From Polyangiaceae bacterium (GTDB lineage Bacteria > Myxococcota_A > Polyangia > Polyangiales > Polyangiaceae): a DNA stretch of 42,672 bases. This document shows positions 24,053 through 31,197 of this stretch, piece after piece; position 1 is the stretch's first letter, and the number at the start of each line of letters is the position of its first letter. The notes under the pieces are model-generated. The model was not told where the DNA came from and searched no databases. It was given only the letters and a program-made list of their open reading frames with translations. The stretch lies in contig JAJDAH010000357.1 in NCBI GenBank assembly GCA_029261965.1, forward strand, positions 1 through 42,672, given 5' to 3'. The position numbers and the translations under genes were made by a program.

Positions 24053-24469
24053 TCACGCGACGAAGACTCGAACGACTTCGATCTCGCCGACGATGGCGTC
24101 GTTGAAGGCGTCGAGATCCACCGCCGGGATCCAGTACTCTTCGTGGATGTGCGACCCGACTCGATGCACCGAGTAGCGCGCGAGGAACTCGGAGAGAACG
24201 CGGAAGCGCGTGACGAATCCGACGCCGGCGTGCTTCGCGTTCCAGTCCTCGGCGATCTGCGCAGCGTAGTGCTCGTGGCAGACCGGGTAGAAGAACTCCT
24301 GCTGGCGCAAGCGCGGCGGGAACCGACGATACTTGGCGAGGGCGATCTCCCGGAGCTCGAGATCGCCGACCGGCCGGTAGAGCCGACGGGTCTCGAGCGC
24401 CTCGACTCCGTGCGGGAACAGGAGTCGAGCGGGCGCGCTCGGAGGCTGGTTGTGGATCTTGGTCTTCAT
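24053..24469 (-). CDS. hypothetical protein (138 aa)
   Basis: ATG at 24469 lies 6 nt after GGGAGG. The N-terminal extension of the long ORF overlaps the tRNA-Ser gene and was discarded. No family was recognised. Confidence 0.45.
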   Translation of the reverse strand: MKTKIHNQPPSAPARLLFPHGVEALETRRLYRPVGDLELREIALAKYRRFPPRLRQQEFFYPVCHEHYAAQIAEDWNAKHAGVGFVTRFRVLSEFLARYSVHRVGSHIHEEYWIPAVDLDAFNDAIVGEIEVVRVFVA

Positions 24470-24682
24470 GACGGACCTCCCGCGTCGGGAGGAAAAAAAC
24501 TCGCAGGTTCGACGACTCGTGCAGGGTGGATCTTGGGTCCGGGAATGGAATGCAGCTCCGGGCCGTTTAGTAGGTTGGAGGAAGCTGGAGGTCTCGATCC
24601 CCAAACGGCGTGAGCCGCTCGCATCGGCTAGCAACCGAGCTCGCTCCCGTGAGCGATTCAGCTTCCGGAGAGAAGCAGGCAG

Positions 24683-24769
24683 AGGAAGGTGACGGAGTCG
24701 AACCGCTGCCACGACTGTGACCACTGGTTTTCGAGACCAGCCTGAGCACCAGCGCTCAGCTCACCTTCC
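24683..24769 (-). tRNA. tRNA-Ser (anticodon CGA), class II with long variable arm
   Basis: The reverse-complement folds as acceptor GGAAGGT/ACCTTCC 7/7, anticodon stem CTGGT/ACCAG with loop CTCGAAA, a long variable arm, and T-loop TTCGACT. The D-arm is atypically long and the discriminator is not G, so the call is tentative. Confidence 0.6.
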
Positions 24770-24855
24770 GAAAGAAGTTGCCCTCGCCTCGTTTTTTTCG
24801 AGTCGTGACGCCCGGGCCAGGCGGCGGAGTTTTTCGTCCTCCGATTCGACGGGGC

Positions 24856-25389
24856 TCAGACGATGCCTGCCGACGCTTGCGGTCGACAGAAGTCACGCCA
24901 CTCGTTCGGAACGCGGTTGACGTCCATGAACGGCGGCGTGAGCGGCAGCGTCTTCGGCTGAAACGGCGCTCGAGCGAGCCGCATGCTCGCCTCGGCCGGC
25001 GTACGGTTCGCCTTCTTCGAGTTGCAGCCGTAGCACGAGGTCACGATGTTCTCCCACGTCGTCCGGCCACCCCGAGCCCGCGGGGTGACGTGGTCGTACG
25101 TGAGCTTGCGCGCCGGAAGCTGCGTGTTGCAGTAGCAGCACGTGAAGCGGTCACGGGTGTAGACGTTGATCCGCGAAAACTTCACGCCCCGCTTGGTGCG
25201 ACTCAACTTCTTCTTGAGGCGCATCACTGCCGGCATCTTGATCGTCGTGGACGGCGAGCTGATCTCTTCGGCGTACTCGACGACGACGTCGGCCTTGCCG
25301 AGGAAATGCAGCGTCACCGCGTCCTGCCAGGACACGATCTTGTGCGGGAAGTACCAATGCGTGAGCAGCAGCGTTTGTTGCGGATTCAT
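24856..25389 (-). CDS. HNH endonuclease
   Basis: CCYCN...YDHVTPRARGG...NIVTSCYGCNSKK, the HNH/zinc-hook signature. ATG at 25389 preceded by GGAGG. Confidence 0.8.
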   Translation of the reverse strand: MNPQQTLLLTHWYFPHKIVSWQDAVTLHFLGKADVVVEYAEEISSPSTTIKMPAVMRLKKKLSRTKRGVKFSRINVYTRDRFTCCYCNTQLPARKLTYDHVTPRARGGRTTWENIVTSCYGCNSKKANRTPAEASMRLARAPFQPKTLPLTPPFMDVNRVPNEWRDFCRPQASAGIV

Positions 25390-25543
25390 GACTCCTACCT
25401 CCGTTTTCGTTTCATTTTCTCTTCACGTCTCCGAAAGAAGCTCCCGAAGGAGCGACAGAAAAAGTCGAGCTCGGGGGCGCGGACTCACCCGCGGCGAGGA
25501 GCCCGCAAGACCCCCGAGCTCTGTGTGTTCGCACCTCGGTCAC

Positions 25544-26656
25544 TCAGACGTGACCGTTGTTGCCGCGCGGACCGAGCAAGTCGGCCGGCAGCAACGACTT
25601 GAGGCCGTCGGCGCCGACGACGATCCGGACTTCTCCGATTTGCGAAGCAATGTCCTTCATCGCGTCGAGCTCCTTGAGCCGAAGCAGGACCGGCTGGTCC
25701 GCCATGACCCGCGCCGTGTTGGCCAGCGACCGCGTCGCCGCCGTCTCCTCGCGACGGAGAATGACGTTGGCTGCGGCCTCCTTCTCGGCCTCGATGACGC
25801 GATTGAGCAGCGTCTTCATCTCGCCGGGCAACACGACGTCCTTGACGCCGACCCGTTCGACGCGAACGCCGAACTTGGCTGCCTTGCCGATGACCTGCTG
25901 CTCGAGCGCGTTGGTCATCGCGTCGCGACCTTCGAGAAGCTCGTCGAGGGTCGCGGCCGAGACGTAGTCCCGAGCCGCGAGCTGCACGACCGTGTAGATC
26001 GTGTCTCGCAGGTTCGTGACCGCGTGGGCGGCGAGCGCCGGGTCTTCGATCGCGTACTCGACCGTCAGCGACAGGCGAAGCGTGACCTTGTCACGCGTCA
26101 TCAAGTCCTGACCGACGATGGCGAGCTGGTCGCTACGCATGTCGATGACGCCCACGTGGACTTCCTTTTCCGGGTGCGTCCAGAACGTGTGCCGACCCGG
26201 CTCGAGCAAACGCTCGAGGCGACCCTGCACGTACAGAAGGCCACGCTGGTACGCGAGGACCGTCGCTTCGACGATCTCACGCGCCGGCACGACGAGCTTG
26301 AGCTCGTCCGTGAGCTCCGGCAGCGGCTCGTCGACGTCGAAGACGTCGAGCTTCACCGACGGGTCGACCGTCCAGAAACGGTGCGTGCCCGGCCGGAGGA
26401 ACTTGCGCGGCTTGCCGTCGGCGTAGAGCACCGCACGCTGACGCTTGCCGAGGGTGATCTCCTGGAACCACTCGGCCGGCAGCGCGGCGCGCACCTCGGG
26501 CAGCGCGTCGAAGAGCAGCTGGTCCGTCTTGAACCGCTGCTCGGTCAGGCGCAGTCCCCAAAGAACGTGGCGACCCGGACCGCATGCACGGATCGGGAGG
26601 CCGTTCTTGAAGATGACCGCGCGTTCGTTCAACTTGACGCGAATCGTCTTGTACAT
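25544..26656 (-). CDS. SPFH/band-7 (stomatin/prohibitin-like) domain protein
   Basis: ATG at 26656 lies 8 nt after GGAGG. MYKTIRVKLNERAVIFKNG N-terminus, then an SPFH core (LTVEYAIEDP...VKDVVLPGEMK...) and a coiled-coil tail. The 120-codon upstream extension is Pro/Ser/Arg-rich junk. Confidence 0.75.
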   Translation of the reverse strand: MYKTIRVKLNERAVIFKNGLPIRACGPGRHVLWGLRLTEQRFKTDQLLFDALPEVRAALPAEWFQEITLGKRQRAVLYADGKPRKFLRPGTHRFWTVDPSVKLDVFDVDEPLPELTDELKLVVPAREIVEATVLAYQRGLLYVQGRLERLLEPGRHTFWTHPEKEVHVGVIDMRSDQLAIVGQDLMTRDKVTLRLSLTVEYAIEDPALAAHAVTNLRDTIYTVVQLAARDYVSAATLDELLEGRDAMTNALEQQVIGKAAKFGVRVERVGVKDVVLPGEMKTLLNRVIEAEKEAAANVILRREETAATRSLANTARVMADQPVLLRLKELDAMKDIASQIGEVRIVVGADGLKSLLPADLLGPRGNNGHV

Positions 26657-27094
26657 TTTCGATGCCTCCACGTGAGGTTTGGGGTGAGGTGCCGGGTGCT
26701 CACCATCGAGCACGTCGGCGTGGCTCCGCATTGGCGGAGCCGAAGTAGGGGGATCGGGGCACGGCCGCAGTTGCGATGAGTTGCGAGGGGGGAGGAGCGG
26801 CCATGCCCCGTCCGAAGTAGTGGTCCAGAGAGCCGCGGAGACCCCAAACGCTCGAGGGTCGCTCGTGTTGCCGGCTGCAGACGTGCGGCAGCCGGTTCGA
26901 CGTGGCGACGCTCGAACGCTCGCGGACCCTCGGAGGCGCGGAATGGGCGGACCGCTGTTCGGGAGCGATGGTGGTCGCCGCAACGATGACCACCGCCCGT
27001 GAAAAGCGGCGCGCATGACCCCGGGCCTACCGTGGGCTCGTCGCCTACGAGTGCTTCCGAGGAAGCACCCGCGGCAACGCTGGGGCTCGGACTC

Positions 27095-30176: not shown

Positions 30177-30285
30177 AAAGTCGGGCGGCGGCACCCGGGC
30201 ACTCGTGGCCCGAGGACCGCCGCCGGAAAAAAGTTGCACGAGTTGTCAAACATCGAGGCGCCGAGCGGAGCTCGAGCGCTTTCGT

Positions 30286-30359
30286 TGGATCCGGGGCGAG
30301 GGTTCGAACCTCGATTTCTGCGTTCAGAGCGCAGTGTCCTGCCATTGGACGATCCCGGA
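30286..30359 (-). tRNA. tRNA-Gln (CUG), CCA encoded
   Basis: Acceptor TCCGGGA/CCCCGGA 6/7. D-arm GTCC-AATGGCA-GGAC. Anticodon arm CTGCG-CTCTGAA-CGCAG. T-arm CGAGG-TTCGAAC-CCTCG. CCA encoded. Confidence 0.85.
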
Positions 30360-30369
30360 ATGGGCGGAG

Positions 30370-30441
30370 TGAGGCACCAGGGATTCGAACCCCGATCGAC
30401 CGGGTAAGAGCCGGCTGCTCTCGCCATTGAGCTAGTGCCCC
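30370..30441 (-). tRNA. tRNA-Lys (CUU)
   Basis: Acceptor GGGGCAC/GTGCCTC with one G-U. D-arm GCTC-AATGGCGA-GAGC. Anticodon arm GCCGG-CTCTTAC-CCGGT. T-arm CGGGG-TTCGAAT-CCCTG. Confidence 0.85.
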
Positions 30442-30960
30442 ATTTCATGGGTGTTGCTTCGTGTTCACGTTTCGAGATGCACAAAAGAAAAAGCCACCTT
30501 CCTCATTCGGTAGGCGGCTTCACCACGTTCGGTCGTCGATGAAGCCGTCTACACGGTGCCCTCTTCGTTCGCGGCCGGGCACACACACGCCTTGAGAGAA
30601 TCGTTCTCTTCGTGCATGCATGCCCCGCGACTTGGGCGCGCGGTCATGGTTTTCGGAAACTCTTGATTCATGGTTCGCTGGGGTTAGACGCTCCTACTTT
30701 CGATTTGGTTCCGAAGAATCTCAAATTTTTTCGTTCTTCGGTTTGGACGCGCAGGGAATGGTGTCCGCGGTCGGCGGACGCAACGCCGCTGTCGGCGCAC
30801 GAGGACTCGAGCGCGCTCGGAGACGGGGTGCGCCGCAGAATGGAGAGCGACGCGCGACACCAGACCCTTGAAAAATCTAAACTTCAGTCACTTCCGGCGG
30901 GCCTCCTCCTCGACGAAAAGCCCGGGTTTTCAGCCAAATGAGCGTTCTTCTGGCGACACA
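30442..30960 (-). promoter_or_regulatory. AT-richer non-coding leader upstream of the tRNA array (probable promoter region)
   Basis: About 500 bp with visibly lower GC than the flanks, including an 8 bp inverted repeat CCGAAGAA...TTCTTCGG near 30705-30740. Its only ORF (30612-30941) has poor codon bias. It sits between the terminator at 30961-30996 and the first tRNA of the array. Confidence 0.4.
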
Positions 30961-30996
30961 AAAGCAAAAAAGGCCGCCGGGATTCCCGGGCGGCCT
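30961..30996 (-). terminator. rho-independent terminator (minus strand)
   Basis: Stem GGCCGCCGGG / CCGGGCGGCC (9 of 10 bp) with loop ATTC. On the minus strand it is followed by TTTTTTGCTTT. Confidence 0.7.
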
Positions 30997-31197
30997 TCGC
31001 TTCGAACGTGAAACGTCAGCCGCCGCTAGACACCTTTCTCCACATCACAGTCGATGCTCGAACGCATACCGACCGTGACGACAGATGGATTCCTGCGAGC
31101 GAGCCACAAGCTCGTTGCCGGATGTTGCTGGGCGTTTATCGGGGACACAGTGAGTCTTTAGATACGCGTCGCGTTCCGATTTGTCAAATCGAAAGCC

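Follow-up and report, generated by a model that had tools for sequence, protein, structure and literature searches.

Long arrays of transfer RNA (tRNA) genes are a recognised puzzle: they occur in phages, on plasmids and here and there among bacteria, most of them are silent, and only for Anabaena is something known of their control and use. The tRNA array unit is described by Tran et al. (2015, PMC4758250) as 20 or more tRNA genes packed at 2 or more per kb, and array units are known in Acidithiobacillus (PMC4758250), in Mycobacterium (Morgado & Vicente 2018, PMC5966550) and on linear plasmids of M. avium (PMC12803027). The L-array is long, lies in one orientation, has a spacing that permits co-transcription and is non-periodic (Santamaria-Gomez et al. 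2021, PMC8421152); L-arrays come on top of a dispersed set of housekeeping tRNAs, are silent under standard conditions and induced by translational stress, are patchily distributed, show signs of horizontal spread and have an HNH endonuclease as a neighbour (PMC8421152). In Anabaena sp. PCC 7120, ribosome-targeting antibiotics induce the otherwise silent trn L-array, which aids survival (PMC8421152), and the repressor TrcR controls it together with two HNH genes, rtcB, rimK and alr0740, which is annotated as a 'slipin family protein' (PMC10272220). In the literature we found no report of such arrays in Myxococcota. Here we describe a tRNA array block in a Polyangiaceae bacterium (assembly GCA_029261965.1, contig JAJDAH010000357.1); the window analysed is the entire 42,672-bp contig. 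We think it probable, on balance, that the block is one transcription unit, which joins a spare, near-complete L-array set of tRNAs to an HNH nuclease gene and a gene for a cytoplasmic SPFH protein and is gated by tandem ribosome-dependent attenuators.

The window array resembles these systems closely. Its main part packs 29 tRNA genes into 3,066 nt, which places it among the tRNA array units, and its 31 tRNA genes all lie on the minus strand without periodicity, as in an L-array. The family to which it belongs has an embedded HNH gene, occurs patchily and is common to phages and plasmids. As in other L-arrays, the array is dense, covers nearly all amino acids, has divergent tRNAs and contains an HNH gene of the same family, and the relatives of the window share with L-arrays a link to the RNA-repair and translation genes RtcB, Ro60, RimK and slipin. 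From its sequence features we are highly confident that the window array is a member of this known kind, in a phylum where it has not previously been described, so that the locus extends long tRNA arrays to myxobacteria. Two differences from Anabaena stand out. There the slipin gene is only co-regulated with the array, whereas here an SPFH gene lies inside the putative operon; and there TrcR binds promoter repeats, whereas control here would appear to be exerted by tandem attenuators in the leader. The association of HNH and slipin genes with arrays spans two phyla, as co-regulation in one and as gene linkage in the other.

A conserved leader module upstream of the tRNA array

All features of the block, from 31187 down to 24008 (about 7.2 kb), are on the minus strand. 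A first-pass annotation of this DNA had correctly seen a single-strand block from about 31000 to 24053, and had taken a terminator at its upstream end for the outer border. The hairpin and T-run are indeed present at 30962-30997, but they form part of an internal module, and the unit appears to begin further upstream, at a predicted promoter-like site at 31159-31187 that consists of a -35 box TTGACA (31182-31187), a 17-nt spacer and a -10 box TATCTA (31159-31164) and is preceded by a T-rich stretch. Ten nucleotides after the -10 box, a GTG codon (31146-31148) opens leader open reading frame 1 (ORF1; 31026-31148), which is thus of the leaderless type; it has 40 codons and ends with TAG at 31026-31028. 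Its end lies within module 1 (30962-31046), which comprises a Shine-Dalgarno-like (SD-like) GGAG, the TAG stop codon, an antiterminator hairpin at 31024-30989, a terminator GCCGCC..GGCGGC at 30994-30973 and a T-tract to 30962. In the partial transcript of module 1, the predicted energies of the antiterminator and the terminator are -22.3 and -21.4 kcal/mol, respectively.

A second copy of this arrangement follows. Leader ORF2 (30549-30671; ATG at 30669-30671, 40 codons, stop TAG at 30549-30551) encodes the peptide MNQEFPKTMTARPSRGACMHEENDSLKACVCPAANEEGTV, whose C-terminal end and stop context match those of a related locus, L026 (QEGTV*). Module 2 (30483-30569) contains the TAG stop codon, an antiterminator hairpin at 30547-30515, a terminator at 30520-30491 and a T-tract to 30483. 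In its minimum-energy fold the antiterminator spans the stop codon, and its duplex energy is -13.9 kcal/mol compared with -5.2 kcal/mol in shuffles (p = 0.002). Module 2 terminates 41 nt before the first tRNA, and we found no promoter-like site between the two in the window. Across loci, the distance from the end of the terminator to the first tRNA is 14-192 nt.

When we scanned an alignment of the HNH family of the block against one genome per species, we obtained 80 loci, nearly all from Polyangiaceae (loci are given L numbers below). In other loci, hairpins homologous to window positions 30961-30996 precede the first tRNA by 460-555 nt, and a second, similar hairpin lies directly before the first tRNA. 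The module is laid out in a constant order. An SD-like GGAGG is followed after 6-10 nt by a stop codon and, 0-3 nt further on, by a GC-rich arm (GCGGC); then come a variable inner hairpin and a terminator of the form GCCGCC-loop-GGCGGC with a T-rich tract behind it. We built a covariance model, R1, from 28 module copies and searched it over 1.35 Mb. It gave 76 matches, all on the strand of the array or mirroring such a match, and all beside arrays or beside two HNH-SPFH pairs without tRNAs; the other 26 array-less loci had none. In the window there were exactly two matches, module 1 (30963-31046; 48.9 bits, E 1.5e-7) and module 2 (38.5 bits, E 2.5e-5). Furthermore, R1 matched upstream of the arrays of the phage contigs L089, L090, L100 and L108. 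Rfam contained no family for the leader module and detected no T-box or other known riboswitch in it.

The structure of the module is conserved as well. Among the 28 modules, the terminator helix is 97.6% paired, with an outer pair that is A-U in 12 copies and G-C in 15, and none of 500 shuffles reached the observed pairing percentage or covariation score. The antiterminator, in which the arm after the stop codon pairs with the 5' arm of the terminator and so excludes the terminator, forms in the minimum-energy fold of 26 of the 28 partial transcripts at -12 to -27 kcal/mol, compared with -19 to -27 kcal/mol for the terminator. The arm-to-arm duplex has a median energy of -14.3 kcal/mol, against -8.2 kcal/mol in shuffles and -7.2 kcal/mol for the 14 nt upstream of the stop codon, and it reaches p <= 0.05 in 21 of 32 modules. 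Matched, compensatory variants of the antiterminator occur in L089, L016 and L090.

Some features that would be expected of a translated leader also recur. The stop column of 65 distinct matches reads TAG in 36, TAA in 8 and TGA in 7, the remainder being mostly alignment shifts. Even allowing for some bias from the choice of the R1 seed, it would be difficult to account otherwise for a position at which all three stop codons are used and one-step non-stop variants hardly occur. In 13 related loci, TTGACA-N17-TAnnnn, again preceded by an AT-rich stretch, occurs 130-215 nt ahead of the stop codon of module 1, and in 12 related loci an ATG, in frame with that stop, follows the -10 box by 4-30 nt (mostly 8-14). 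The frame and the length of the leader ORF are kept across insertions and deletions, while the peptide drifts freely.

Several further observations concern the module. In some relatives it also stands between sub-blocks of tRNAs, four times in L037 and three times each in L043-L045. In L050 (4879-5005) and L070 (9707-9792) it precedes HNH-SPFH pairs with no tRNAs nearby, and it may control HNH and SPFH in their own right. The 3' arm of the terminator and its tail often read GGCGGC-TTTTTT-GCATTTGG, for example in L004 (8664-8684), L013 (989-1009) and L009 (9656-9676), and the GCATTTGG tail is conserved beyond the needs of a terminator. A sigma-54 promoter in the conserved ...GGCGGCTTTTTTGCATTTGG tail (GG-N10-GC) was considered and rejected, since only about one module in two has the required spacing and the two copies in the window do not.

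A candidate ribosome-dependent attenuator

Ribosome-dependent attenuators are known from the trp, his and pheST leaders and, as antibiotic sensors, from bmrB-bmrCD and vmlR in Firmicutes. The window leader shares with them a short ORF ahead of the genes, an intrinsic terminator that ends in a U-tract and, upstream of this terminator, a hairpin that cannot coexist with it and whose 5' arm falls inside the ribosome footprint of a defined codon. It differs from them in lacking runs of regulatory codons: the critical position would be the stop codon that abuts the antiterminator arm. It also differs in the SD-like motif 6-10 nt upstream of the stop codon, in an ORF that is apparently leaderless, in the genes that would be controlled, which are tRNAs, and in modules that are arranged in tandem and occur inside arrays as well.

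We propose the following mechanism. The conserved promoter would drive the 40-codon ORF of leaderless type. A ribosome at the stop codon of this ORF would cover the GC-rich arm that begins 0-3 nt beyond it, and the SD-like GGAGG 6-10 nt upstream could hold the terminating ribosome there. With the arm covered, its partner would be free, the intrinsic terminator would form and transcription would stop short of the tRNAs. If translation were slow, blocked or unloaded, as with damaged or cleaved tRNAs or ribosome inhibitors, the arm would pair first and form the antiterminator; with antiterminators at both modules, RNA polymerase would read into the tRNAs, SPFH and HNH. The unit would thereby supply replacement tRNAs under translational stress, as experiments have demonstrated for the Anabaena L-array, and two modules in series would ensure tight silence. 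That the module is regulatory seems to us likely; that it is the ribosome that operates it we hold with less assurance, as the more probable case.

A number of points weigh against this proposal. The core antiterminator helix has only 5-6 bp and its partner is almost invariant. Its formal covariation on alignment A2 was nil, which is uninformative because the partner arm does not vary, and support for the antiterminator therefore comes from conservation, energies and a few compensatory variants. The R1 seed was chosen partly for the presence of a stop codon, which biases the stop count. Substitutions in the leader peptides are spread evenly over codon positions with no sign of selection on the peptide; the peptides as such are thus free to change, and what could matter is solely that the ORF is translated. 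Translation of the leader ORF is argued only from stop conservation, maintenance of frame and placement of the start, open frames of 40 codons are not rare in GC-rich DNA, and the leader ORF starts in the window are not preceded by a Shine-Dalgarno sequence. We infer the transcription start, read-through and co-transcription from the sequence. Finally, the block contains tRNA remnants and several odd tRNAs, for instance a tRNA-Leu(CAA) that has no long variable arm, and these would fit partial decay.

Could the leader hairpins be plain terminators or insulator repeats that travel with the array, with the ORFs and antiterminators arising as by-products of GC-rich sequence? The almost invariant core GCCGCC/GGCGGC resembles a repeated element, the nil covariation on A2 and the unconserved leader peptides fit such a reading, and not all hairpins have a good T-run, an exception being GGCGGCCTCGCTGCATTTGG in L002 and L010. 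However, a plain terminator would not account for a stop codon that stands, in all three forms, at a fixed 0-3 nt before the arm, or for the 14 nt after the stop codon, which are far more complementary to the terminator arm than are shuffles or the 14 nt ahead of the stop. From module to module the apical helix changes its sequence and yet always forms, and the promoter and start codon are placed consistently. Furthermore, the tRNAs leave no space for a separate promoter, and a constitutive terminator would just silence the array. We consider this explanation unlikely.

Alternatively, the modules could be real attenuators run by a trans-acting factor, such as an RNA-binding protein, a free 30S subunit at GGAGG or a tRNA fragment. 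The GGAGG is conserved irrespective of reading frame, indicating that it acts at the RNA level, and the leader ORFs lack a Shine-Dalgarno sequence. A precedent for a factor of this type is the enterobacterial RNA-repair operon under RtcR, described in PMC7790460 as a sensor of damaged tRNAs. On the other side stand the conserved identity of the stop codon, the maintenance of ORF frame and length across insertions and deletions and the placement of the start codon next to the promoter, none of which would be needed by a switch operated purely by protein or RNA; nor did Rfam show a T-box or other known riboswitch. Control by such a factor is quite unlikely in our view.

We therefore favour the ribosome-operated attenuator. 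Of all the results, the one that interests us most is the occurrence of this conserved leader module, which would be a new variant of attenuation, in both chromosomal and phage arrays. The chromosomal copies are tied to those of phages by gene order, by HNH sequence and by the shared leader element, and the module suggests a simple, testable cis-acting logic for conditional expression of an array. More tentatively, and at somewhat less than even odds as we see it, large phages and Polyangiaceae may have in common a backup translation kit, in which a leaderless 40-codon ORF with a stop-adjacent antiterminator serves as a general sensor of ribosome progress. In such a kit, tandem sensors might silence a complete set of variant tRNAs together with HNH and, in chromosomal copies, a cytoplasmic SPFH protein, and the trigger might be an attack on the tRNA pool or on ribosomes; tRNA-cleaving toxins, defence nucleases and antibiotics are examples. 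If this reading is true, no earlier case of a cis-acting translation sensor in control of tRNA genes would be known, and there would be a mechanistic answer to the question of why L-arrays stay silent and are yet retained. The attenuator, if it works in the proposed way, would further explain how phages might restrict the expression of replacement tRNAs to times when the host cuts its own.

The array family in chromosomes, phages and plasmids

Carriers among the 80 loci include Minicystis rosea, Chondromyces apiculatus, Polyangium spp. and Byssovorax, and close homologues of the block proteins all come from Polyangiaceae. Same-strand tRNAs flank the HNH gene in 52 of the 80 loci, with up to 40 per locus; the array is patchy, being present in some Polyangiaceae loci that hold the HNH gene and absent from others. 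Altogether we found the array family in more than 50 Polyangiaceae genomes and about 60 large phage contigs of IMG/VR. The shared order is Lys, Gln, Asn, Thr, Glu, Phe, His ... Arg, Arg, Met, Met, Pro, Val, Ile, Val, Leu, Leu, Leu, then HNH, then Ser tRNAs, and the window conforms to it. More than 25 Polyangiaceae loci, those of C. apiculatus, M. rosea and Polyangium spp. among them, have the shared tRNA order with HNH between the Leu block and the Ser tRNAs, and Ser tRNAs lie downstream of the HNH gene in most related arrays. SPFH homologues with 58-67% identity adjoin the HNH gene in 17 of the 80 loci, and in L006, L021 and L041 the SPFH gene follows tRNA-Leu(GAG), as it does in the window.

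The flanks behave differently from the interior. Neither BioA nor the neighbouring lipoprotein of the window has a counterpart in any of the 80 loci, and the vWA gene of the flank recurs only in L001/L004, at 49% identity. Synteny across relatives, which the first-pass annotation had raised as evidence for a core operon, thus extends to the internal order of the array and stops at its borders. In Chondromyces and Minicystis, collinear arrays lie among housekeeping genes, beside ABC permeases, NDK and AcrB.

The same family also occurs outside chromosomes. In IMG/VR, 334 viral contigs encode relatives of the HNH protein with up to 58% identity, and among the best 80 of these, 59 carry 5-41 same-strand tRNAs in the same order as the window. 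L090 is clearly a phage, with endolysin, CCA-adding enzyme and RtcB beside the array. On plasmids, HNH relatives with 35-46% identity occur in Nostoc, Tolypothrix, Acaryochloris and Mycobacterium, and on the M. avium plasmid pS2b the homologue (42% identity) is embedded in an array of 25 tRNAs. The link between HNH genes and phage-type tRNA arrays, which had been noted as a hallmark in the first reading of this DNA, is therefore real and general. The tRNA clusters of T4, T5, cluster C/M mycobacteriophages and jumbo phages likewise have neighbouring HNH or Seg endonucleases, RtcB, CCA-adding enzyme or Ro60, and the phage contigs L089, L090, L100 and L108 have the same HNH family, tRNA order and leader module as the window. 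Unlike the phage arrays, the window copy lies in a chromosome without phage genes and has gained the SPFH gene. As an observation apart, in the Acaryochloris marina plasmid pREB6 (L086, 73440-73937) the HNH homologue has no tRNAs within 7 kb and adjoins a plasmid-borne methionyl-tRNA synthetase gene and a YlxR gene.

These sequence relationships support the view that the array has phage ancestry or was exchanged with phages. Recent arrival is a separate matter. Cargo of a recently integrated prophage, integrative and conjugative element or genomic island, with the HNH protein as a spreading homing endonuclease, would fit the HNH-plus-array family on large phage contigs and on mycobacterial and cyanobacterial plasmids as well as the flanks that differ from genome to genome, and homing endonucleases have been proposed as spreaders of L-arrays (PMC8421152; PMC5966550). 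However, a Pfam scan of the likely genes in the window detected no integrase, recombinase, relaxase, phage structural or conjugation gene, and a repeat search of the window found no flanking direct repeat or copy of the tRNA-Ser 3' end, so that the absence of an integrase and a direct repeat, already remarked on, holds for the whole 42.7 kb; megablast of the block against phage and plasmid collections gave no match. The GC content at third codon positions (GC3) of the SPFH and HNH genes is 0.81-0.84, which is host-like, at the top of the local range and no lower than that of neighbouring genes. The arrays of cultured relatives have the housekeeping neighbours named above, and the SPFH gene present in the window is missing from all of the best 80 viral loci. 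Recent insertion is distinctly improbable on this evidence, and we concluded that the window copy is a long-resident chromosomal copy and not an active mobile element. The description of the block as accessory-looking stands as far as its type is concerned, given its divergent tRNAs; of a mobile element or recent insertion we found no sign in the window.

Composition points the same way. The leader (30442-30960) has a GC content of 57%, in line with the lower GC previously reported for it, and only 0.1% of equal-sized flank windows are as low; the surroundings are at 65% and not at the roughly 70% stated before, and the window mean is 64.7%. The intergenic stretch adjoining the leader is equally low (56.5%), and the dip reflects non-coding promoter and attenuator sequence.

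The tRNA genes

ARAGORN with default settings found 28 tRNAs at 27376-30441 and two tRNA-Ser genes, and a relaxed run added tRNA-Ile(GAT) at 27736-27808. The total is 31, with all 20 amino acids covered. The first-pass annotation had counted 31 tRNAs plus a tRNA-Ser; the dense array is as described, and the 31 are made up of 29 in the array (27376-30441, found with ARAGORN and Rfam; 9.5 per kb) and two Ser genes, tRNA-Ser(CGA) at 24682-24764, which it had listed, and tRNA-Ser(GCT) at 24576-24666, which it had overlooked. In the direction of transcription, the array reads Lys-CTT, Gln-CTG, Asn, Thr-CGT, Glu-TTC, Phe, His, Asp, Gly-TCC, Gly-GCC, Tyr, Lys-TTT, Arg-TCT, Glu-CTC, Arg-ACG, Arg-CCG, Met, Met, Gln-TTG, Pro-CGG, Val-CAC, Leu-CAA, Trp, Ala, Cys, Ile, Val-GAC, Leu-CAG and Leu-GAG, with spacers mostly below 50 nt. 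Repeats within the array are limited to T-arm matches and one Gln pair of 80% identity, without a periodic pattern. That pair, tRNA-Gln(TTG) at 28564-28639 and tRNA-Gln(CTG) at 30281-30356 (80% over 76 nt), suggests a local duplication followed by a change of anticodon.

Many of these tRNAs are unusual. At the Rfam tRNA threshold, 18 of the 31 pass, one more passes through the tRNA-Sec model and 12 fail. The one more is tRNA-Ser(CGA), which exceeds the tRNA-Sec threshold (54 versus 47 bits) despite its anticodon CGA, not UCA. Several window tRNAs (minus strand; 24682-24769, 29677-29749, 28396-28469 and others) fit the tRNA-Sec model better than the general tRNA model, which points to an unusual arm geometry. 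The 74-nt tRNA-Leu(CAA) at 28288-28361 (minus strand) has no long variable arm, although a bacterial tRNA-Leu would be expected to have one; its closest counterpart is the Leu-CAA of L027, at 82% identity. Identity elements are retained, with G3:U70 in tRNA-Ala and G-1 in tRNA-His. Compared with their best counterparts in other arrays, the window tRNAs are 70-86% identical.

In the 719-nt spacer upstream of the SPFH gene, two tRNA remnants lie at about 27135-27240 on the minus strand (from a partial Rfam match and sequence reading): a tRNA-Pro(TGG)-like piece without an acceptor stem and a tRNA-Cys-like 5' half. The Rfam tRNA match scores 26.9 bits and covers only model positions 10-63, and the region has weak similarity to the tRNA regions of other arrays. 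A Y RNA in this spacer was considered and rejected, as the Rfam result is a truncated tRNA match with a 17-bit YrlA match and reads as tRNA remnants.

Minicystis rosea has 88 tRNAs in its whole genome (PMC8436480). Its locus L029 holds 40 of them and 48 further tRNAs lie outside the array, so that the array is extra there; by analogy, this gives indirect support to the view that the window array, too, is supernumerary to the housekeeping set. A core housekeeping tRNA operon, vertically inherited and constitutive, is scarcely credible: the coverage of all 20 amino acids, the order conserved across the family and the host-like composition would suit it, but 12 of the 31 tRNAs fall below the Rfam tRNA threshold and several are matched better by the tRNA-Sec model, identity to counterparts in related genomes is only 70-86% where housekeeping tRNAs within a bacterial family are usually far more alike, Minicystis has its 48 further tRNAs, many HNH-bearing Polyangiaceae loci lack the array while phages carry the same one, and two terminators stand between promoter and tRNAs.

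Protein-coding genes of the block

Downstream of the array, the three protein genes that had been proposed from the sequence, an SPFH/band-7 gene, an HNH endonuclease gene and an unknown ORF of 138 amino acids, were all recovered. The SPFH/slipin gene, with its limits corrected to 25544-26656, encodes 370 amino acids and matches PF01145 (Band_7) at 1e-30, and its nearest solved structures are stomatins (2e-21). Over its full length the protein aligns at 34% identity with proteins annotated as slipin family; its NCBI annotation is P0121. Classical prokaryotic stomatin operons encode an N-terminal membrane anchor and a partner NfeD protein. The window protein has no predicted membrane helix, its best 19-residue hydropathy window being 1.11 compared with 1.7-1.8 in neighbouring secreted and membrane proteins, and an NfeD partner was not found, as the HNH protein and the 138-residue protein, the two neighbouring block genes scanned with Pfam, are not NfeD. 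On our reading of the sequence, residues 1-135 contain, three times over, the short strand motif with which an SPFH domain normally begins (..RAVIFKNG..PGRH.LW; ..RAVLYADG..PGTHRFW; ..RGLLYVQG..PGRHTFW). A 490-residue form of this family also exists, at 58% identity.

The HNH gene (24856-25389) encodes 177 amino acids, with matches to HNH_5 at 1.3e-15 and HNH at 1.1e-11 in Pfam and to PDB 4H9D at 1.3e-9. By Pfam, NCBIfam, PADLOC and PDB, the protein consists of a conserved N-terminal domain and an HNH domain of the IscB/Cas9/Gmet_0936 type. Alignment A1 of the family has 41 invariant columns, among them the D-H...N...N residues and the Cys pairs. The gene has a fixed place in the arrays at 55-65% identity, and this fixed position together with its strong conservation argues for a maintained function. 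Solitary copies also occur in varied contexts: one metagenome-assembled genome (L025/L027) and another (L028/L070) each have two HNH paralogues, one array-linked and one solitary, and the HNH tree contains whole clades without tRNAs, in unrelated contexts.

The 138-residue ORF (24053-24469) carries the NCBI family label 'ADP-ribosylation/crystallin J1' and drew no match in Pfam, PADLOC or PDB. Its link to arrays is loose, with homologues near arrays in L010 and L011 alone among the 80 loci. PADLOC gave only generic HNH-domain matches (PtuB, Cas9) on the block, and none for SPFH or the 138-residue ORF. The block ends with an intrinsic-terminator-like hairpin at 24008-24045 on the minus strand, with 15 pairs of which 11 are G-C.

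Likely genes of the window were called by GC3 and then scanned against Pfam. Their content is typical of a myxobacterial chromosome and includes DUF2378, a sigma-54 activator with an FHA domain, a Ser/Thr kinase, a two-component pair, aquaporin, BioA, and vWA, PEGA and thioredoxin-like proteins.

RNA-repair genes and other insertions in related arrays

Ro60/TROVE genes are embedded in many related arrays. Gaps of about 2 kb after tRNA-His occur in L015, L024, L029, L036, L037, L042, L043 and L083, and in many such arrays a Ro60/Rsr gene is embedded (TROVE 2e-44, vWA_Ro60 6e-65); L024 and L029 have a second embedded gene, of about 570 amino acids and without a Pfam match. Ro60 is also present in L084, at 3611-5197. 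The order in L084 is module, tRNAs, Ro60, tRNAs, a YrlA-like RNA, HNH, SPFH and RtcB. The YrlA-like Y RNA there (8523-8649) scores 66.3 bits against Rfam RF02553, just below the 69-bit threshold; a second partial YrlA-like copy lies at 9622-9689, and the RtcB gene downstream is split. A search of six related loci found no YrlA, and the YrlA-like RNA appears only in L084. In L001, a RimK gene and a RimB-like gene lie 5 kb upstream of the array.

Salmonella and Deinococcus have a repair operon of Rsr (Ro60), Y RNA and RtcB, as described in Chen et al. (2014, PMC4201824) and Hughes et al. (2020, PMC7790460). Its three components, as Ro60/TROVE, YrlA-like RNA and RtcB, are embedded in relatives of the window, whereas a search of the window itself found none of the three. 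By analogy, this likeness points to a shared theme of response to damaged tRNAs. Similarly, array, HNH, slipin, RtcB and RimK are co-regulated in a cyanobacterium and clustered in Polyangiaceae, which would point to a conserved response to translational damage.

Other insertions are found in single relatives. In L002/L003 (11395-15356), five genes part the HNH gene from the remaining array: a vWA_2 protein, genes of 327 and 86 amino acids without a Pfam match, a faint Prok-JAB gene and a ThiF protein, which together resemble a cassette for ubiquitin-like conjugation or of a defence type. Simple-sequence repeats occur within two arrays: that of L006 contains a long CTCGTA/CTCGTG hexamer tract (about 6760-7080), and in L007 (about 16050-16370) repeated CTTGGCGGCCTTGGCGG units precede tRNA-Trp.

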